A DNA stretch of 64,000 nt from Candidatus Marinacidobacterales bacterium (GCA_965237955.1 OZ250169.1:5856001-5920000), one strand, 5' to 3'. Shown: positions 24,113 through 34,174, counted from the first letter of the stretch. Made by a program: numbers and translations. The notes: generated from the letters alone by a model not told the origin.

Positions 24113-26242
24113 TTACAGCTTGACGTCGACGCTGAAAAAAGCCGAGATCGGAGGAGCGGGAATCACGGACGTAGCGCCGAAGCCGCGCAAGAAATACTCG
24201 CGATCGGTCAGATTCTTCACGTTGAGTCGTAGCTGGACCGCACCGATGCGGTAGAAGATCATCGCGTCGAACGTCAGCACACCGTCGAGCGCGAACAGGT
24301 TGTCCTCGGCGATGAACTGATGGCTCACATAGCGCCCGCCGCCACCGATGCCCCAATTCGAGGCGAAGTCGTGGCTGAGCCAGAAATTCAGAATGTGTTT
24401 CGGTGCGAACGCCGGATCGTTGCCCGAACGATCGAAAACCACGACCGCCGGCGGCGCAATCGAGACGACGACGGCTTCGCTGAAATTGGTGAGCTCGGAG
24501 TCGTTGAACGCGTACGAGACAAAAGCTCTCGAGCGCGAGCTCGGTTGCGCCGCGAAATCGATCTCGAATCCGCGCGAGCGTTGGTTGCCGGTCTGCTGCG
24601 TGAAGCCGGTGTCGTCCGGGATCGGGATGTTCTCGCGTTCGAGTTGATAGACGGCGAACGTCGTCTCCGCGTTCAAGGCACCGAAGCGCTTCTTGACGCC
24701 GGCTTCGATCTGAGTGCTTCGCTCGGGCACGAGCTCACCGATGACCCGCGGTGATGGCGGGGCGAACGATCGCGAGAAGTTTCCGTAGATCGAAAGCTCG
24801 TCGTTGGGTGCCGCGAGAATTCCGACCATGGGGGAGAACTCGGTGTCGTTGCGCTCGCGTGCGCTAGCCTCGTCCTTGAAATCGATATTGTCGACGCGCC
24901 CGCCTATTAACACGTTCACGTACTCACCGAGCTCGATCTGGTCGATCACGTACGGAGCGATGACGATGCTTCGGGAATCTCCGGCGAAGCCCACGCCCGG
25001 AAGAGGAATCGGCTCGGAGCCCGGGGGCTCGACGGGGTCGAATAGATCGACAAGAGGGAGAAGGCTCACGTCGAGGGTGAACACGTCCGCGTAGCGGGCG
25101 AGCTCGAGCCCAGTCAACAAGCTGTGTCGTACCGCGCCGGTGTCGAAGGAGAAGATTGCTTCGAACTGGTTTCCAGTGAGATCTTGCCGGTCGTCGAGCT
25201 CGAGAAGACTGCGGATGAGACCGAACGATGTCGGCCCGGTCGGAATGGCGCCGTTGAAGATGGTGCCGTTCGTCATCCAGTCGAGATCGCGCCGATAGAA
25301 CTTGTCACGTATCGTGACCGAGCTCGAGATTACTTTTTGGTAGTCCGCCTGGAAGCGAAAGACTTCCTGTTCGGACATGTCGAGCGGTGACTGGTAGTTG
25401 GTGTCGAGCTCGACGGGCGCAATCTCGTTACCAAGAGCCGGGATACCGCTATCCGGCGTGAAGTCCGCGTTCATGTACTCGAAGTTGACGTTGAGATTCG
25501 AGGTGTCGTCGAATCGCCACGTCAGCGCGGGGTTGATGGCGGCGGTGCGTCCGCCCTTGCCCTCGCGATGGCTCCCTTGGTCACGGAAGAGTCCGTTCAA
25601 GCGAAACGACACGGGGTTGTCGACGCTTCCGGTGTTCCAATCGAAGGAACCCTCGTAGTTGTCGAACGAGCCCGCGGCCAGATGGAAATCGAGGAAATTA
25701 GCCGGCGCGGGCTGTTTTCTGACGAGGTTGATCGCCCCCGCCAACGGGTTGCTCCCATAGAGAAAACCGCCCGGCCCTTTCAGCACTTCCACGCGCTCCA
25801 CGTTGTAGAGCTGGTAGAAGGTCGCTTCCGGCTCGGCGGCTCCGTCGGTGAGCACGAGAGCACTCGACAACGAATCGAATCCGCGGATGTAGAAGAAATC
25901 GTGGACCCCGTTTTGCGTTTGAATATTAATGTTACTGACGTTCACCAAAGCGTCGCCGACCACTCGATCGAACTGCTCGTTGAACAACGGCGCGGTCACG
26001 ACACCGACGTTACTCGGCGTCAGCCGTAACTCGAGAGGGAGGCGAGCAATCACCGTATTCGAGTTGGGCACGTAGGGCAGTGAATCTTCGACGTAGACGT
26101 ACTCCTCCACTTCCGGACGAGGCGCTCCGGAGGTTGTCTTCTCCGGGTCGCCGTCCGTTTTTTGCTCTTGTGGGTGAGCGAGACCCGCAAACAGCGTGAT
26201 GGCGGCTAGTAGAAACGCGATCGTTCCATGCTTATGGCCCAT
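24113..26242 (-). CDS. TonB-dependent receptor
   Basis: Plug motif YNVERVEVLKGPGGFLYG..GAINLVRK; NLTDREY near the C-terminus. Confidence 0.9.
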   Translation of the reverse strand: MGHKHGTIAFLLAAITLFAGLAHPQEQKTDGDPEKTTSGAPRPEVEEYVYVEDSLPYVPNSNTVIARLPLELRLTPSNVGVVTAPLFNEQFDRVVGDALVNVSNINIQTQNGVHDFFYIRGFDSLSSALVLTDGAAEPEATFYQLYNVERVEVLKGPGGFLYGSNPLAGAINLVRKQPAPANFLDFHLAAGSFDNYEGSFDWNTGSVDNPVSFRLNGLFRDQGSHREGKGGRTAAINPALTWRFDDTSNLNVNFEYMNADFTPDSGIPALGNEIAPVELDTNYQSPLDMSEQEVFRFQADYQKVISSSVTIRDKFYRRDLDWMTNGTIFNGAIPTGPTSFGLIRSLLELDDRQDLTGNQFEAIFSFDTGAVRHSLLTGLELARYADVFTLDVSLLPLVDLFDPVEPPGSEPIPLPGVGFAGDSRSIVIAPYVIDQIELGEYVNVLIGGRVDNIDFKDEASARERNDTEFSPMVGILAAPNDELSIYGNFSRSFAPPSPRVIGELVPERSTQIEAGVKKRFGALNAETTFAVYQLERENIPIPDDTGFTQQTGNQRSRGFEIDFAAQPSSRSRAFVSYAFNDSELTNFSEAVVVSIAPPAVVVFDRSGNDPAFAPKHILNFWLSHDFASNWGIGGGGRYVSHQFIAEDNLFALDGVLTFDAMIFYRIGAVQLRLNVKNLTDREYFLRGFGATSVIPAPPISAFFSVDVKL

Positions 26243-26499
26243 TCAATCTCCGTGCTCAAGAACGCCCCGGCAATGCAATTCGCCATCATAGATAGGGGGG
26301 GACTTGGCCGCAAATCTCGTCGCTTTACATTCGGAGAGCGCTGAAATACTTTGGAGTCCTCAGACACTCTCCATGAGAGGACCGATCGGTGAAACGATTC
26401 AACGCCATCTTCAACTGGCACGAAGAGCTGCTTAGGCTGGTTCCGGTGAATTGAGTGGGGATGTGATGGACGCAGCTCGCGAAAGAACATGAAAAACAT

Positions 26500-26700
26500 T
26501 TCCGGTTAAGGCAGACTGGTGCGGTCCGGAGCGGTGAGATCGACGAACCAGTGGGGCCGTTGAGACCGTTCAACTGGCTGATCCGGCGTGTGCGTTGGTA
26601 GAGCGAATAAGTAGGCGTCGCCGTGAGCGCTTTGTCCACGGTGCGAGCCTGAGATCCTGATTAATGAAGTTGATTAGCACGCGCTCCGCTGCGGCGATGA
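26500..26700 (+). ncRNA. Candidate IS110 bridge-type RNA (repeated in each copy)
   Basis: Non-coding left end with long-range stem CGGAGCG/CGCTCCG, internal hairpins, and segments matching the flank and the donor end (see findings). Confidence 0.55.
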
Positions 26701-26709
26701 GGAGGAGCG

Positions 26710-27987
26710 ATGCCAAACCGGATTGCTGGGATAGACGTTCACAAGAAGATGCTGGCGGTGGTGGTCGCCGACATCGCAGTAGAGGGCGAGTATAAGTTTT
26801 CGCGCCGGCGTGTGGGTACGAGACCGAGTGAGCTTCGGGCTCTGGCGGAGTGGCTGGTGGCCGAGGGGGTCGATGAAGTAGTGATGGAATCGACCGCGCA
26901 ATATTGGCGCCCGGTGTGGGAGGCGTTGGAGCGGTCCTGGGCTCCGCAGTGCCGAGCTCGGCCGGGCGCGGGTGCGCAGTCGGGCAACTTGCATCTGGCG
27001 CAAGCAAAGTCGAATCGCGGCGCGCGGGGTCGGAAGCGGGATTTTCCGGATGCCGAACGATTGGTGAAGCGTTTGGTGGCGCAGGAGCTGACTCTAAGCT
27101 TCGTTCCCGAGCCGGAGCAGCGCCTGTGGCGAACGGTGATGCGCCGCAAGTACCAGTTCACGCGTAACCGGGTTCAGCTCCAAAACCGCCTAGAGTCGTT
27201 GCTGGAGGAAGCGCATCTAAAGTTGTCGAGCCTGGTGTCGGATCTTCTGGGGCTGAGTGCGCGGCAGATGTTGCAAGCCTTGGCGGACGGGGAAACGGAG
27301 CCGGCCCGCTTGGCGGAGTTGGCCGACCGTCGATTGCGTGCCACGCCCGAGCAGTTGTGCGATGCGCTCGGCGCGTGTGCCGATCTCAACCCCGTCTATC
27401 GGAAGCTCGTGCAAATGACGCTCGAGGAATTACGATTGCTCGAAGAGCAGAGCGCGCAACTCGATGAAGAGATGGCGCATCTGCTCGGCGAGCATCAAGC
27501 AGCTGTGCAACGACTCGCTGAAGTGCCTGGGCTCGGCGTGGATTCGGCGCAGCAGATCATCGCGGAAGTCGGGGCGAGCGCCGAGACGTTTCCGTCGGCC
27601 AAGCACCTCGCGTCCTGGGTGGGCGTGTGCCCCGGAGAGCACGAAAGCGCCGGCAAAAGCTACAGCCATCGCTCGCCCAAAGGCAGTCGGCCGATGCGCC
27701 GCCTCCTCAATCAAGCCGCCAACGCGGCCGTCAAGACCAAAGGGAGTTTCTTCCAGCTCGTGTACCGGCGGTTGGTTCCACGCCTGGGGCACGCGCAAGC
27801 CATCTGGGCCGTTGCCCATCGGTTGTGTCGTTTAATCTGGAAGATTCTCCACCAGGGCGTTGACTATGAGGAACGTGGCCCCGACGTTAGCCGCGCGCGC
27901 TCCAAACGACGCATTGCCAATATGATCCGCGACCTGCGCAAACTCGGATATCACATCGAGCCTTCTCTACGGGGAGATCCAGCATGA
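26710..27987 (+). CDS. IS110-family recombinase/transposase (DEDD RuvC-like + Transposase_20)
   Basis: GIDVHK, MESTAQYW, RDFPDA, VPGLG, HESAGK. Confidence 0.95.
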   Translation: MPNRIAGIDVHKKMLAVVVADIAVEGEYKFSRRRVGTRPSELRALAEWLVAEGVDEVVMESTAQYWRPVWEALERSWAPQCRARPGAGAQSGNLHLAQAKSNRGARGRKRDFPDAERLVKRLVAQELTLSFVPEPEQRLWRTVMRRKYQFTRNRVQLQNRLESLLEEAHLKLSSLVSDLLGLSARQMLQALADGETEPARLAELADRRLRATPEQLCDALGACADLNPVYRKLVQMTLEELRLLEEQSAQLDEEMAHLLGEHQAAVQRLAEVPGLGVDSAQQIIAEVGASAETFPSAKHLASWVGVCPGEHESAGKSYSHRSPKGSRPMRRLLNQAANAAVKTKGSFFQLVYRRLVPRLGHAQAIWAVAHRLCRLIWKILHQGVDYEERGPDVSRARSKRRIANMIRDLRKLGYHIEPSLRGDPA

Positions 27988-28223
27988 CGATAGATGTTTT
28001 TCGATCCTGCAATTCGCCATCATAGATAGGGGGGGACTTGGCCGCAAATCTCGTCGCTTTACATTCGGAGAGCGCTGAAATACTTTGGAGTCCTCAGACA
28101 CTCTCCATGAGAGGACCGATCGGTGAAACGATTCAACGCCATCTTCAACTGGCACGAAGAGCTGCTTAGGCTGGTTCCGGTGAATTGAGTGGGGATGTGA
28201 TGGACGCAGCTCGCGAAAGAACA

Positions 28224-29743
28224 TGAAAAACATTTCCGGTTAAGGCAGACTGGTGCGGTCCGGAGCGGTGAGATCGACGAACCAGTGGGGCCGTTGAGAC
28301 CGTTCAACTGGCTGATCCGGCGTGTGCGTTGGTAGAGCGAATAAGTAGGCGTCGCCGTGAGCGCTTTGTCCACGGTGCGAGCCTGAGATCCTGATTAATG
28401 AAGTTGATTAGCACGCGCTCCGCTGCGGCGATGAGGAGGAGCGATGCCAAACCGGATTGCTGGGATAGACGTTCACAAGAAGATGCTGGCGGTGGTGGTC
28501 GCCGACATCGCAGTAGAGGGCGAGTATAAGTTTTCGCGCCGGCGTGTGGGCACGAGACCGAGTGAGCTTCGGGCTCTGGCGGAGTGGCTGGTGGCCGAGG
28601 GGGTCGATGAAGTAGTGATGGAATCGACCGCGCAATATTGGCGCCCGGTGTGGGAGGCGTTGGAGCGGTCCTGGGCTCCGCAGTGCCGAGCTCGGCCGGG
28701 CGCGGGTGCGCAGTCGGGCAACTTGCATCTGGCGCAAGCAAAGTCGAATCGCGGCGCGCGGGGTCGGAAGCGGGATTTTCCGGATGCCGAACGATTGGTG
28801 AAGCGTTTGGTGGCGCAGGAGCTGACTCTAAGCTTCGTTCCCGAGCCGGAGCAGCGCCTGTGGCGAACGGTGATGCGCCGCAAGTACCAGTTCACGCGTA
28901 ACCGGGTTCAGCTCCAAAACCGCCTAGAGTCGTTGCTGGAGGAAGCGCATCTAAAGTTGTCGAGCCTGGTGTCGGATCTTCTGGGGCTGAGTGCGCGGCG
29001 GATGTTGCAAGCCTTGGCGGACGGGGAAACGGAGCCGGCCCGCTTGGCGGAGTTGGCCGACCGTCGATTGCGTGCCACGCCCGAGCAGTTGTGCGATGCG
29101 CTCGGCGCGTGTGCCGATCTCAACCCCGTCTATCGGAAGCTCGTGCAAATGACGCTCGAGGAATTACGATTGCTCGAAGAGCAGAGCGCGCAACTCGATG
29201 AAGAGATGGCGCATCTGCTCGGCGAGCATCAAGCAGCTGTGCAACGACTCGCTGAAGTGCCTGGGCTCGGCGTGGATTCGGCGCAGCAGATCATCGCGGA
29301 AGTCGGGGCGAGCGCCGAGACGTTTCCGTCGGCCAAGCACCTCGCGTCCTGGGTGGGCGTGTGCCCCGGAGAGCACGAAAGCGCCGGCAAAAGCTACAGC
29401 CATCGCTCGCCCAAAGGCAGTCGGCCGATGCGCCGCCTCCTCAATCAAGCCGCCAACGCGGCCGTCAAGACCAAAGGGAGTTTCTTCCAGCTCGTGTACC
29501 GGCGCTTGGTTCCACGCCTGGGGCACGCGCAAGCCATCTGGGCCGTTGCCCATCGGTTGTGTCGTTTAATCTGGAAGATTCTCCACCAGGGCGTTGACTA
29601 TGAGGAACGTGGCCCCGACGTTAGCCGCGCGCGCTCCAAACGACGCATTGCCAATATGATCCGCGACCTGCGCAAACTCGGATATCACATCGAGCCTTCT
29701 CTACGGGGAGATCCAGCATGACGATAGATGTTTTTCGATCCTG
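28224..29743 (+). mobile_element. IS110 element, copy 2
   Basis: Near-identical to copy 1. Confidence 0.75.
28444..29721 (+). CDS. IS110 recombinase, copy 2
   Basis: 425 aa; one Q->R change versus copy 1. Confidence 0.95.
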   Translation: MPNRIAGIDVHKKMLAVVVADIAVEGEYKFSRRRVGTRPSELRALAEWLVAEGVDEVVMESTAQYWRPVWEALERSWAPQCRARPGAGAQSGNLHLAQAKSNRGARGRKRDFPDAERLVKRLVAQELTLSFVPEPEQRLWRTVMRRKYQFTRNRVQLQNRLESLLEEAHLKLSSLVSDLLGLSARRMLQALADGETEPARLAELADRRLRATPEQLCDALGACADLNPVYRKLVQMTLEELRLLEEQSAQLDEEMAHLLGEHQAAVQRLAEVPGLGVDSAQQIIAEVGASAETFPSAKHLASWVGVCPGEHESAGKSYSHRSPKGSRPMRRLLNQAANAAVKTKGSFFQLVYRRLVPRLGHAQAIWAVAHRLCRLIWKILHQGVDYEERGPDVSRARSKRRIANMIRDLRKLGYHIEPSLRGDPA

Positions 29744-29764
29744 GACGCAGCTCGCGAAAGAACA

Positions 29765-31284
29765 TGAAAAACATTTCCGGTTAAGGCAGACTGGTGCGGT
29801 CCGGAGCGGTGAGATCGACGAACCAGTGGGGCCGTTGAGACCGTTCAACTGGCTGATCCGGCGTGTGCGTTGGTAGAGCGAATAAGTAGGCGTCGCCGTG
29901 AGCGCTTTGTCCACGGTGCGAGCCTGAGATCCTGATTAATGAAGTTGATTAGCACGCGCTCCGCTGCGGCGATGAGGAGGAGCGATGCCAAACCGGATTG
30001 CTGGGATAGACGTTCACAAGAAGATGCTGGCGGTGGTGGTCGCCGACATCGCAGTAGAGGGCGAGTATAAGTTTTCGCGCCGGCGTGTGGGTACGAGACC
30101 GAGTGAGCTTCGGGCTCTGGCGGAGTGGCTGGTGGCCGAGGGGGTCGATGAAGTAGTGATGGAATCGACCGCGCAATATTGGCGCCCGGTGTGGGAGGCG
30201 TTGGAGCGGTCCTGGGCTCCGCAGTGCCGAGCTCGGCCGGGCGCGGGTGCGCAGTCGGGCAACTTGCATCTGGCGCAAGCAAAGTCGAATCGCGGCGCGC
30301 GGGGTCGGAAGCGGGATTTTCCGGATGCCGAACGATTGGTGAAGCGTTTGGTGGCGCAGGAGCTGACTCTAAGCTTCGTTCCCGAGCCGGAGCAGCGCCT
30401 GTGGCGAACGGTGATGCGCCGCAAGTACCAGTTCACGCGTAACCGGGTTCAGCTCCAAAACCGCCTAGAGTCGTTGCTGGAGGAAGCGCATCTAAAGTTG
30501 TCGAGCCTGGTGTCGGATCTTCTGGGGCTGAGTGCGCGGCAGATGTTGCAAGCCTTGGCGGACGGGGAAACGGAGCCGGCCCGCTTGGCGGAGTTGGCCG
30601 ACCGTCGATTGCGTGCCACGCCCGAGCAGTTGTGCGATGCGCTCGGCGCGTGTGCCGATCTCAACCCCGTCTATCGGAAGCTCGTGCAAATGACGCTCGA
30701 GGAATTACGATTGCTCGAAGAGCAGAGCGCGCAACTCGATGAAGAGATGGCGCATCTGCTCGGCGAGCATCAAGCAGCTGTGCAACGACTCGCTGAAGTG
30801 CCTGGGCTCGGCGTGGATTCGGCGCAGCAGATCATCGCGGAAGTCGGGGCGAGCGCCGAGACGTTTCCGTCGGCCAAGCACCTCGCGTCCTGGGTGGGCG
30901 TGTGCCCCGGAGAGCACGAAAGCGCCGGCAAAAGCTACAGCCATCGCTCGCCCAAAGGCAGTCGGCCGATGCGCCGCCTCCTCAATCAAGCCGCCAACGC
31001 GGCCGTCAAGACCAAAGGGAGTTTCTTCCAGCTCGTGTACCGGCGCTTGGTTCCACGCCTGGGGCACGCGCAAGCCATCTGGGCCGTTGCCCATCGGTTG
31101 TGTCGTTTAATCTGGAAGATTCTCCACCAGGGCGTTGACTATGAGGAACGTGGCCCCGACGTTAGCCGCGCGCGCTCCAAACGACGCATTGCCAATATGA
31201 TCCGCGACCTGCGCAAACTCGGATATCACATCGAGCCTTCTCTACGGGGAGATCCAGCATGACGATAGATGTTTTTCGATCCTG
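29765..31284 (+). mobile_element. IS110 element, copy 3
   Basis: Near-identical; preceded by only 23 bp of duplicated upstream DNA. Confidence 0.75.
29985..31262 (+). CDS. IS110 recombinase, copy 3
   Basis: 425 aa; same protein as copy 1. Confidence 0.95.
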   Translation: MPNRIAGIDVHKKMLAVVVADIAVEGEYKFSRRRVGTRPSELRALAEWLVAEGVDEVVMESTAQYWRPVWEALERSWAPQCRARPGAGAQSGNLHLAQAKSNRGARGRKRDFPDAERLVKRLVAQELTLSFVPEPEQRLWRTVMRRKYQFTRNRVQLQNRLESLLEEAHLKLSSLVSDLLGLSARQMLQALADGETEPARLAELADRRLRATPEQLCDALGACADLNPVYRKLVQMTLEELRLLEEQSAQLDEEMAHLLGEHQAAVQRLAEVPGLGVDSAQQIIAEVGASAETFPSAKHLASWVGVCPGEHESAGKSYSHRSPKGSRPMRRLLNQAANAAVKTKGSFFQLVYRRLVPRLGHAQAIWAVAHRLCRLIWKILHQGVDYEERGPDVSRARSKRRIANMIRDLRKLGYHIEPSLRGDPA

Positions 31285-31498
31285 CAATTCGCCATCATAG
31301 ATAGGGGGGGACTTGGCCGCAAATCTCGTCGCTTTACATTCGGAGAGCGCTGAAATACTTTGGAGTCCTCAGACACTCTCCATGAGAGGACCGATCGGTG
31401 AAACGATTCAACGCCATCTTCAACTGGCACGAAGAGCTGCTTAGGCTGGTTCCGGTGAATTGAGTGGGGATGTGATGGACGCAGCTCGCGAAAGAACA

Positions 31499-33018
31499 TG
31501 AAAAACATTTCCGGTTAAGGCAGACTGGTGCGGTCCGGAGCGGTGAGATCGACGAACCAGTGGGGCCGTTGAGACCGTTCAACTGGCTGATCCGGCGTGT
31601 GCGTTGGTAGAGCGAATAAGTAGGCGTCGCCGTGAGCGCTTTGTCCACGGTGCGAGCCTGAGATCCTGATTAATGAAGTTGATTAGCACGCGCTCCGCTG
31701 CGGCGATGAGGAGGAGCGATGCCAAACCGGATTGCTGGGATAGACGTTCACAAGAAGATGCTGGCGGTGGTGGTCGCCGACATCGCAGTAGAGGGCGAGT
31801 ATAAGTTTTCGCGCCGGCGTGTGGGCACGAGACCGAGTGAGCTTCGGGCTCTGGCGGAGTGGCTGGTGGCCGAGGGGGTCGATGAAGTAGTGATGGAATC
31901 GACCGCGCAATATTGGCGCCCGGTGTGGGAGGCGTTGGAGCGGTCCTGGGCTCCGCAGTGCCGAGCTCGGCCGGGCGCGGGTGCGCAGTCGGGCAACTTG
32001 CATCTGGCGCAAGCAAAGTCGAATCGCGGCGCGCGGGGTCGGAAGCGGGATTTTCCGGATGCCGAACGATTGGTGAAGCGTTTGGTGGCGCAGGAGCTGA
32101 CTCTAAGCTTCGTTCCCGAGCCGGAGCAGCGCCTGTGGCGAACGGTGATGCGCCGCAAGTACCAGTTCACGCGTAACCGGGTTCAGCTCCAAAACCGCCT
32201 AGAGTCGTTGCTGGAGGAAGCGCATCTAAAGTTGTCGAGCCTGGTGTCGGATCTTCTGGGGCTGAGTGCGCGGCGGATGTTGCAAGCCTTGGCGGACGGG
32301 GAAACGGAGCCGGCCCGCTTGGCGGAGTTGGCCGACCGTCGATTGCGTGCCACGCCCGAGCAGTTGTGCGATGCGCTCGGCGCGTGTGCCGATCTCAACC
32401 CCGTCTATCGGAAGCTCGTGCAAATGACGCTCGAGGAATTACGATTGCTCGAAGAGCAGAGCGCGCAACTCGATGAAGAGATGGCGCATCTGCTCGGCGA
32501 GCATCAAGCAGCTGTGCAACGACTCGCTGAAGTGCCTGGGCTCGGCGTGGATTCGGCGCAGCAGATCATCGCGGAAGTCGGGGCGAGCGCCGAGACGTTT
32601 CCGTCGGCCAAGCACCTCGCGTCCTGGGTGGGCGTGTGCCCCGGAGAGCACGAAAGCGCCGGCAAAAGCTACAGCCATCGCTCGCCCAAAGGCAGTCGGC
32701 CGATGCGCCGCCTCCTCAATCAAGCCGCCAACGCGGCCGTCAAGACCAAAGGGAGTTTCTTCCAGCTCGTGTACCGGCGGTTGGTTCCACGCCTGGGGCA
32801 CGCGCAAGCCATCTGGGCCGTTGCCCATCGGTTGTGTCGTTTAATCTGGAAGATTCTCCACCAGGGCGTTGACTATGAGGAACGTGGCCCCGACGTTAGC
32901 CGCGCGCGCTCCAAACGACGCATTGCCAATATGATCCGCGACCTGCGCAAACTCGGATATCACATCGAGCCTTCTCTACGGGGAGATCCAGCATGACGAT
33001 AGATGTTTTTCGATCCTG
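31499..33018 (+). mobile_element. IS110 element, copy 4
   Basis: Near-identical; ends gatccTG before unique flank. Confidence 0.75.
31719..32996 (+). CDS. IS110 recombinase, copy 4
   Basis: 425 aa; same protein as copy 2. Confidence 0.95.
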   Translation: MPNRIAGIDVHKKMLAVVVADIAVEGEYKFSRRRVGTRPSELRALAEWLVAEGVDEVVMESTAQYWRPVWEALERSWAPQCRARPGAGAQSGNLHLAQAKSNRGARGRKRDFPDAERLVKRLVAQELTLSFVPEPEQRLWRTVMRRKYQFTRNRVQLQNRLESLLEEAHLKLSSLVSDLLGLSARRMLQALADGETEPARLAELADRRLRATPEQLCDALGACADLNPVYRKLVQMTLEELRLLEEQSAQLDEEMAHLLGEHQAAVQRLAEVPGLGVDSAQQIIAEVGASAETFPSAKHLASWVGVCPGEHESAGKSYSHRSPKGSRPMRRLLNQAANAAVKTKGSFFQLVYRRLVPRLGHAQAIWAVAHRLCRLIWKILHQGVDYEERGPDVSRARSKRRIANMIRDLRKLGYHIEPSLRGDPA

Positions 33019-33061
33019 GTTCGACGAGCTCGAACGCCTCGTCCCTACGCGATAAAGCACA

Positions 33062-33625
33062 CTAATGAATCCGCGGCTCGATCGGCAACGCCGCGACGAT
33101 GTTTGCCTCCACGGTTGCGAGCTCACTCAGCCGCTCGTCCACCGCTTCCGGATCGTCGTACAAGCAAGCGAGCTCGCGGAAGAGCGCCGCGTGTCGTGAC
33201 TCGGCCTTGGCGAGGTCTCCGTAAAATCGCTTCAGGTCGGGCGCTTCCAGGTGCGTTGCGAGAAGCTCGAGTCGCTCGTGCGAGCGGGCCTCGATGAGTC
33301 CGAACAAAAGCAGTCGATCGGTGAGCCGCCCTTGGTTGGCTCGGGCCAGGGCCATGAGCTTCTGCGCGTAGGGGTCGCCCTGGTCGCGACCGAGGGCCAA
33401 CCCGCGCTGCACGATCCGTTCATAGACGGCGCGGAAATGCTGAAGCTCCTCGACCGCGAGCGCGCTCATGCGCCGGACGAGCTCTTCAAACTCCGGATAA
33501 CCCACGACGAGCGACATCGCGGAGGCCGCCGCCTTTTTCTCGCAGTGAGCGTGGTCGACGAGGACGGCATCCATGCTCGATGTCGCGACGTCGATCCAAC
33601 GCGGCGTCGTCTCGGAAACAATCAC
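33062..33625 (-). CDS. miaE: tRNA-(ms2io6A) hydroxylase
   Basis: DHAHCEKKAA, EELQHF, IEARSHER, SESRH-like, PRIH. Confidence 0.88.
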   Translation of the reverse strand: MIVSETTPRWIDVATSSMDAVLVDHAHCEKKAAASAMSLVVGYPEFEELVRRMSALAVEELQHFRAVYERIVQRGLALGRDQGDPYAQKLMALARANQGRLTDRLLLFGLIEARSHERLELLATHLEAPDLKRFYGDLAKAESRHAALFRELACLYDDPEAVDERLSELATVEANIVAALPIEPRIH

Positions 33626-33685
33626 GAGGCCATTGTAATCGCCGTCGGTTGTTCGCTATCATGTTTTGGAGGAGAACTGAGACCC

Positions 33686-34174
33686 ATGTTCCGAGTCGCT
33701 CTTTTGGTCGCCACCGTCGTCGTGCAGGTTCCGCGCGGCACGTCCGAGATCACGCTCAATGACACTACCTTGTCCGTCGAGTACGGACGTCCCTTGCTAA
33801 AGGGCCGTGACATGCTCGGGCAGGCGCCCGTCGGAACCGTGTGGCGTTTGGGTGCGGATCAGTCCACGACGATGTCGGTGACCGGCTCCGCGATTTTCAT
33901 AAATATGGTGGTCGCGAAAGGGGAGTACAGCTTGTTCCTGAAACGGACTTCCGAAACGCGGTGGTCGCTGATCGTGAACAAGCAGACCGGGCAGTGGGGA
34001 ACAGAGCATGACCCGCAACAAGATCTGCTCGGCATTCCCCTGAAGTGGGAAAAGCAAGACGATCCCGTAGAGCAGCTCACCATCGAGCTGACCGAGGAGA
34101 CCGAGGAGACCGGAATCCTGTCAATCGCGTGGGGACAGGAAGTCTTGAAGCAGCGCTTTCGACTCAGCCCGTGA
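33686..34174 (+). CDS. DUF2911-like protein
   Basis: VEYGRP..KGR, VWRLGAD..T, GEYSLF, NKQTGQWGT. Confidence 0.75.
   Translation: MFRVALLVATVVVQVPRGTSEITLNDTTLSVEYGRPLLKGRDMLGQAPVGTVWRLGADQSTTMSVTGSAIFINMVVAKGEYSLFLKRTSETRWSLIVNKQTGQWGTEHDPQQDLLGIPLKWEKQDDPVEQLTIELTEETEETGILSIAWGQEVLKQRFRLSP

Follow-up and report, generated by a model that had tools for sequence, protein, structure and literature searches.

The stretch analysed here (the window, 64,000 nucleotides of the Candidatus Marinacidobacterales bacterium genome, GCA_965237955.1, OZ250169.1:5856001-5920000) contains, between positions 26274 and 33018, four head-to-tail copies of an insertion sequence and not one; all features described below lie on the plus strand of the window. 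Copy 1 occupies 26418..28007 and belongs to the IS110 family, as a first-pass annotation made from the sequence alone had recognised: the product of its recombinase gene (26710..27987, 425 aa) matches PF01548 (E 7e-15) and PF02371 (E 1e-18), the Pfam domain pair of this family, each above the curated cut-off. The gene is preceded by a left end of 292 nt and followed by a short right end of 20 nt (27988..28007, ...GTTTTTCGATCC), in which the motif TTTCGA-NNN-core is conserved among relatives. The additional recombinase ORFs of the array are found at 28444-29721, 29985-31262 and 31719-32996.

The genome is a single 8.13-Mb contig that holds five more full copies and one 5'-truncated copy outside the window array, and the ends of the element were defined from six insertions with a left end together with the truncated copy. 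Comparison of the six independent insertions in this genome gives an element of 1590 bp (26418-28007 in the window), each copy of which is bordered left and right by a TG core, inserted at all six sites in one orientation relative to the target reading frame. Towards the left, the likeness among the dispersed copies stops at GCACGAAGAG..., which sets the start at 26418; it is preceded by (C/T)TCAAC-TG, and the left junction reads TCAAC-TG-GCACGAAG. The right end is the same in all copies (...TTTTCGATCC, then TG). In the window, the point at which the six insertions diverge lies at the left target half TTCAAC (26410..26415), which forms the codons Phe-Asn of the interrupted tail and matches guide segment 2 described below; the core of the left junction follows at 26416..26417, and further core dinucleotides stand at 28008-09, 28150-51, 29742-43, 31283-84, 31425-26 and 33017-18. 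The first-pass annotation had placed the left end at 26492, behind the flank AGAACA-TG. The six insertions move it 74 bp to the left, with TTCAAC-TG (26410-26417) as the true flank. The short strings to which the annotation had drawn attention are all present where it had located them (GACGAACCA at 26542-26550, TTCAACTGG at 26569-26577, GATCCTGA at 26653-26660 and TGGTTCGAC at 33017-33025). As for the truncated copy (6927338-6928634 of the genome, minus strand), it begins at base 245 of a 1540-base query, within the recombinase gene, and its intact right end adjoins a WFEELKRLVPAP-stop tail.

Within the array, copies 2 and 4 occupy 28152-29741 and 31427-33016, and copy 3 (29744..31282) lacks the first 51 bases of the element. 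A 140-bp segment of flank, here called X, is repeated along with the element (26276..26415, 28010-28149 and 31285-31424) and occurs nowhere else in the genome. The array thus reads, from left to right: left flank, TG, two units of X, TG and element, then TG, the copy without its first 51 bases, TG, a third unit of X, TG and element, and finally TG and the displaced tail of the target. All array junctions fall at TG. Where the right end is joined to the start of X, the upstream context is GGCAA-TG-CAATTC; the right end of copy 2, on the other hand, is joined through TG (29742-29743) to an internal site of the left end, 51 bases inside (GACGCAGCTCG...), in the context GATGTGA-TG-GACGCAG. Among the joins seen, none is a circle junction of the element itself; that at 29742 leaves copy 3 without the surrogate tail described below. 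Relatives with a shorter left end have its start at the inner site used by copy 3, which may be the ancestral left boundary.

We read the array as a local duplication probably produced by the recombinase, with the element's right end and TG sites outside the target sequence as its substrates. Assemblies often go wrong at identical units in tandem, and this genome is one contig of unspecified read type. It nevertheless appears improbable to us that the array is an artefact of assembling a repeated element: the copies differ from one another at one to three bases in a mosaic manner (element positions 400, 849 and 1354), the junctions are of three types that all lie at TG, and a similar array of flank and element exists in an unrelated assembly (locus L091). 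Moreover, the conclusions on ends, target and guides below were drawn from relatives and from the five dispersed copies, and the array plays no part in them. In L091 (about 880-960 and past the right end), the right end and TG are followed by 59 bp of repeated left flank and then by the left end, and the upstream context is likewise at TG. Elements of the clade are also found stacked head to tail: L037 reads right end-AG-TG-left end, and in L146 and L149 the right end and TG run straight into another relative's left end, the guide segments of which differ. Two preprints on ISPpu10 and IS621 (bioRxiv 10.64898/2026.03.19.712850 and 10.64898/2026.08.31.748434) link IS110 elements to local amplifications; the parts of them drawn on here concern, unlike the present case, intergenic targets and laboratory systems. 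According to those parts of the IS621 preprint, recombination needs only a match to the donor arm, which by analogy could explain array junctions at non-target TG sites.

Target genes and the tail carried by the element

Before insertion, the site reads (C/T)TCAAC-TG-GTTCG..., which corresponds to L/F-N-W-F-D/E codons near a stop. The left flank TCAAC-TG is present in 6/6 sites. On the right, TG-GTTCG is found in four of the seven flanks and TG-GT in all seven (the other three read GTTTCA, GTCCCA and GTTCCA), and all seven translate as W-F/S-x-E/G-L-x-R-x-V-P...stop tails. The insertions thus bear out the target TTCAAC-TG-GTTCG that the first-pass annotation had put forward. In the window, flank comparison identifies the displaced original tail as W-F-D-E-L-E-R-L-V-P-T-R-stop (33017..33055), with the right target half GTTCGAC at 33019-33025; the right flank reads WFDELERLVPTR-stop, as had been noted.

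The frames that run into the element end in ...(V/I)x(L/F)N-W. At three sites the interrupted frames are 825, 673 and 371 aa long and contain PD40 repeats (3/3), the 825-aa frame having a Pkinase domain as well; at the other three, the window's included, they measure 25, 32 and 70 aa. The earlier proposal that the target is the tail of a kinase-PD40 gene family is supported by the long frames; half of the occupied sites lie in frames of 25-70 aa. Its companion proposal, a multicopy landing site within a gene family, is likewise real but modest in this genome: a regular expression finds about 13 free family tails, and the exact 12-mer TCAACTGGTTCG has only two free places in 8.13 Mb, one of which is a family tail, in addition to being rebuilt at three occupied sites.

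The element also carries a tail of its own. Together with the TG core, bases 1-37 of the element spell W-H-E-E-L-L-R-L-V-P-V-N-stop (26416..26454), in frame with the target gene, so that all but the first two bases of this surrogate tail are element-borne. The stretch is identical at the six insertions while the displaced right-flank tails vary; it therefore belongs to the element and does not stem from a duplication of the target. Judging from the reading frame, the surrogate tail (WHEELLRLVPVN-stop) likely lets the interrupted protein stay whole; at the three of six occupied sites with frames of 25-70 aa, among them that of the window, it shields no evident gene.

At least 11 distinct related elements possess a tail of the form W-x-x-E-L-x-x-x-V-P-x-x-stop, in which E4, L5, V9 and P10 are invariant and the stop falls at the same codon, and the DNA right after this stop varies in length and sequence from one element to another. 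The 11 tails have a mean pN of 0.36 and a mean pS of 0.54, with pN below pS in 46 of 55 pairs, a modest signal of selection that could reflect repeated capture of natural tails. Nine of the 11 differ from the target at the bases read by guide segment 1 (in the window, GCACG against GTTCG in the target), and two (L022 and L026) are still like the target of their own guide. Since the tail of the window's element departs from WF(D/E)EL exactly at the segment 1 bases, we infer that the left junction, once furnished with the surrogate tail, would not be targeted again.

Natural, unoccupied tails of the NWHEEL type occur in the same genome at 1421595 (minus strand, NWHEELELLVPTH-stop) and 4072007 (plus strand, NWHEELKERVPTE-stop), and both have TCAACTGGCACGAAGAGCT in common with the left junction of the element; capture from an NWHEEL paralogue is a likely origin. 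One may go further and suppose that, the bridge RNA being right, the tail is no more than a remnant captured from some previous target, acquired as the left boundary moved outward over the tail of a WHEEL-type paralogue, and that it plays no role for the host protein. Besides the shared sequence, several features are consistent with such a history: copy 3 uses a nested inner junction, and the left boundary can therefore shift; pN/pS is only about 0.67; three of the six sites lie in short open frames; and the L025/L065 subgroup merely reads on into the left end to a stop, with no family-like tail. We nevertheless consider it somewhat unlikely, because frame, E4, L5, V9, P10 and stop position are kept by 11 elements whose post-stop DNA varies, and because the differences from the target fall, in nine of the 11 tails, exactly on the segment 1 bases. 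In the L025/L065 subgroup, the targets read ...ITVV(V/L)N-W with the tails WTAGLKK-stop and WKPTP-stop; the upstream frame of L065, at least 312 aa long, has a DGQRFL motif seen in PD40 targets, and the element gives it the read-on tail WQAALGARENR-stop, which is not family-like.

Guide segments and the predicted bridge RNA

Relatives of the element were collected from genome assemblies (at least 79 loci, mostly Acidobacteriota) and from metagenomes (at least 80 loci), their recombinases being 67-86% identical to that of the window; in a protein search of the phylum sample, close relatives were found in six of 400 other genomes at E 1e-60. Many further relatives, with 76-94% identity, are listed by the protein search beyond the loci collected here. 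The combined co-variation analysis used 146 relatives with an aligned left end. Left out of the combined counts were L102, L143, L174 and L150, whose left end is incomplete or wrongly aligned; loci with an upstream stretch shorter than 236 nt and loci without a recognisable right end (4/78 among the genome loci and 18/146 overall) were also removed before counting. Pairwise local alignment gave only approximate boundaries because many flanks are themselves conserved, and the right end was located independently through the conserved TTTCGA-NNN-core. The left ends of the relatives consist of a conserved scaffold and three short varying stretches.

The first of these, segment 1 (ACGAACCAG, 26543..26551), is the putative guide for the right target half: it lies on the 5' side of the predicted target loop, and its reverse complement, TGGTTCGT, equals the core plus the right target half. 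The first-pass annotation had pointed to the 8/9 match between GACGAACCA and the reverse complement of the right flank TGGTTCGAC, and the resemblance proves to be above chance among the relatives. With a threshold of at least six contiguous matches, segment 1 agrees with the right flank in 35/74 genome loci, 27/57 distinct pairs and 20/32 guide classes, against 21/1767 for non-cognate combinations; when metagenomes are included, it agrees in 56/128 loci and 38/64 guide classes, against 29/6395 non-cognate pairs (0.45%). For example, GTGCCA in L036 goes with TGGCAC and GTCCA in L025 with TGGAC, and L048 matches 8/8. The agreement is below threshold in 72/128 loci; 43 of these match one base only past the first core base, and some have a one-base shift or an AG core.

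Segment 2 (TTCAACTGGC, 26569..26578), the candidate guide for the left target half, lies on the 3' side of the same loop and reads in the sense of the target, as left target half, core and one more base. In a scan of about 200 bases upstream of the scaffold, exact 8/8 matches to the left flank fall in one consistent place in 87/140 loci and 46/63 classes, and non-cognate guides match in 38/8820 cases (0.43%). The left-side guide that had been proposed is thereby strengthened: TTCAACTGG fits the true flank 9/9, and the slip of one nucleotide that the annotation had to concede disappears, since it arose from the misplaced left end at 26492.

The donor segment GATCCTG (26653..26659), predicted to be the guide for the left donor on the 3' side of the donor loop, has the same sense as the element's right end plus core, a match that had already been seen between GATCCTGA and GATCC+TG. 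Its triplet equals the right-end triplet before the core in 70/74 loci, and triplet and core agree in 107/128. In L114, L120 and L179 both the guide core and the core at the element's right end are AG; in L120 and L179 segment 2 also has AG, and segment 1 of L120 still has TG. Eleven other loci combine an AG core at the right end with TG in the guide, and they make up 11 of the 21 donor mismatches. Neither visual inspection nor a mutual-information scan of all left-end columns against the first 10 bases of the element, in which no column was mainly complementary or identical, revealed a right-donor guide able to pair where the left end starts; the first-pass annotation had also reported no clear second donor guide. 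Partial matches in the donor hairpin (TGGTGC in L043, GTCCA in the window) were considered for this role and dropped, being inconsistent across relatives. By these sequence counts, the flank matches are more than chance, and guides co-vary with target and donor in the 146 relatives, which is the test that the annotation had proposed for homologous copies.

The predicted core of the bridge RNA spans 26529..26691 in an RNAalifold consensus of 45 left ends with pairwise identities below 93% (L097 and L030, degraded or indel-rich, were left out). Folding the left ends had been suggested in the first-pass annotation, and the consensus comprises 35 pairs, with 98.9% of cells paired and compensatory changes in 11 pairs; none of 500 shuffles was as good, and slid controls were 36-43% paired. 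A closing helix (26529-34 with 26686-91) encloses the target loop and the donor loop. Segments 1 and 2 lie on opposite sides of the internal loop of the first stem, and the inner part of the second stem (26586-93 with 26677-84) bears the donor segment on its 3' side. Several G-U pairs are invariant; on the other strand they would become C-A, and this is consistent with transcription of the RNA on the recombinase strand. The structure is drawn from the alignment, as the single-sequence fold of 26460-26712 is no better than shuffles (z 0.00).

A covariance model (R1) recovers 9/9 full copies at 141 bits, together with nine weaker matches at 34-35 bits. Eight of the latter score alike and correspond to a second IS110-type element in the genome. 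Under strict filters R1 had no match in 150 other sampled genomes of the phylum, and Rfam had none at E up to 1 over 25500-34000. The eight copies of the second element lie at 541124, 631900, 1172606, 2285568, 2887000, 2893515, 3174952 and 3883437; its upstream RNA is weakly matched by R1 (34 bits), and its segment 2, AACTAAGCA, matches its own left boundary, TTTCAACTAAGCA-TCG. Among the relatives, a subgroup with AGCAACTG as segment 2 (L034, L038, L082, L091, L099, L137, L140, L155, L169 and L171) sits in ...DDFRN-W-LIREAA-stop, that is, at Asn-Trp codons a few codons before a stop, behind upstream frames of 2-83 aa.

Regarding expression, neither a sigma-70-like promoter nor a terminator turned up in scans of the left end and of the junction of right end and left end at 29742. 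In four metatranscriptome runs, contigs overlap portions of the left end and of the recombinase gene: a contig of 172 nt spans 26462-26633, and another of 357 nt links 78 nt from the tail of a kinase-PD40 gene (at the copy close to genome position 4856702) with the left end, as far as 26689. These contigs have neither strand nor ends and may derive from DNA carried over into the libraries, so that they count as a hint only, and the uncovered parts carry no meaning; as such a hint, the 357-nt contig is compatible with read-through from the host gene.

The conserved left end might instead be the 5' leader of the recombinase mRNA or a DNA site bound by protein, the flank matches being leftovers of target DNA. 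This reading can draw on the facts that the bridge RNA is predicted and not directly observed and that the searches above yielded neither a promoter nor a second donor guide. We regard it as very improbable because: (i), leftovers would not track new targets in 38/64 and 46/63 guide classes, (ii), they would not occupy both sides of one internal loop in opposite senses, overlapping at the core, (iii), the compensatory and the invariant G-U pairs indicate a folded plus-strand RNA and, (iv), related IS110/IS1111 elements use such RNAs experimentally, according to the text of the two papers compared here (PMC11208160, PMC11187229). The ends, the TG core, the target, the recombinase domains, the three matching segments, their co-variation and the compensatory fold are direct observations. 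That the left end of this IS110 element encodes a bridge (seek) RNA guiding it into TCAAC-TG-GTTCG near the stop of PD40 genes is the prediction that we consider, with good confidence, to be correct.

Relation to known systems and a proposed mechanism

Descriptions of bridge and seek RNAs date from 2024 and mostly concern elements that insert into REP sequences, attC sites or transposon ends. Replacement of a gene end by an inserting element has its own precedent in the prophages found in tRNA genes or icd, which bring along a replacement for the 3' end of their target gene, thereby keeping the gene whole, and which use tyrosine integrases and att sites with long identity. The present element resembles these prophages in its site-specific insertion near the 3' end of a gene and in supplying a replacement end; it differs from them in the predicted short RNA guide, in being a 1.6-kb insertion sequence and in using a motif common to a paralogous family.

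Going by the text of the IS621 paper (PMC11208160), our element shares with IS621 a recombinase with DEDD/RuvC-like and Tnp domains, a long left non-coding end upstream of the gene and a 2-base core common to donor and target, as well as a predicted RNA with a target loop and a donor loop, in which sense and complementary half-site segments overlap at the core (in both loops of IS621, and recognisably in the target loop here). The core is TG here and CT in IS621, the target is a coding motif here and a REP element there, and a right-donor guide is not recognisable here; no Rfam or RNA sequence similarity to IS621 was detected. The order of the guides differs as well. In the same text, the 5' side of the IS621 loop pairs with the bottom strand (left half-site sense), the 3' side is complementary to the right half-site, and the left donor is at the element's right end. 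Compared with the papers' text, the order is swapped in both loops of our element, the complement of the top strand coming 5' and the sense segment 3', which agrees with the opposite arrangement that the first-pass annotation had described. The text of the seekRNA paper (PMC11187229) gives precisely this order, top-strand complement first, for IS1111-type RNAs and the reverse for the IS110 type. According to that text, IS1111-type elements (ISEc11, ISPa11, ISKpn4) have their non-coding region downstream of the recombinase gene and possess subterminal inverted repeats, whereas the non-coding region is upstream here, as in the IS110 type. The element, judged from its layout alone, therefore combines an upstream non-coding region with an IS1111-type guide order.

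A mechanism may be proposed from these results. By analogy with IS621 and ISEc11/ISEc21, the left-end region would be transcribed on the recombinase strand and the predicted bridge RNA would bind the recombinase and guide insertion into a target predicted to be TTCAACTGGTTCGAC. By the same analogy, TG would be the point of strand exchange, and the donor segment would pair with the element's right end in the excised circular form. The first 37 bases of the element and the TG core would then give the interrupted gene its replacement tail, and transcription running on from the host gene may contribute to expression of the RNA. A bolder reading, which we put forward as tentative and do not favour over its alternatives, is that the clade uses a protein motif as a landing pad: the RNA would read the Asn-Trp-Phe-Glu codons of a paralogous PD40/kinase family and the element would bring a guide-immune copy of the tail, such that each insertion would be silent for the host, would not be hit twice, and would have its RNA and recombinase expressed by read-through.

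Three traits appear unusual within RNA-guided IS110 elements: the coding-motif target, the element-borne surrogate tail and the mixed layout. In the literature that was searched, no IS110 element was described as targeting and replacing the tail of a gene, supplements being a place where such targets may be listed. The mixed layout bears on the relationship between the IS110 and IS1111 groups, and the relatives, with at least 64 guide classes in at least 146 elements, form a natural reprogramming series, i.e. a ready test set for the guide rules of TG-core elements. The element also offers an explanation for the orphan WF(D/E)EL tail fragments of these genomes and for their local arrays. A protein motif that is conserved at the codon level can serve as a multicopy site for a guide of about 12 bases, and a surrogate tail would let an insertion sequence avoid both harming its target and hitting it again. 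If the landing-pad reading is true, the element would be a gene-tail mimic, spreading through a gene family without breaking it.
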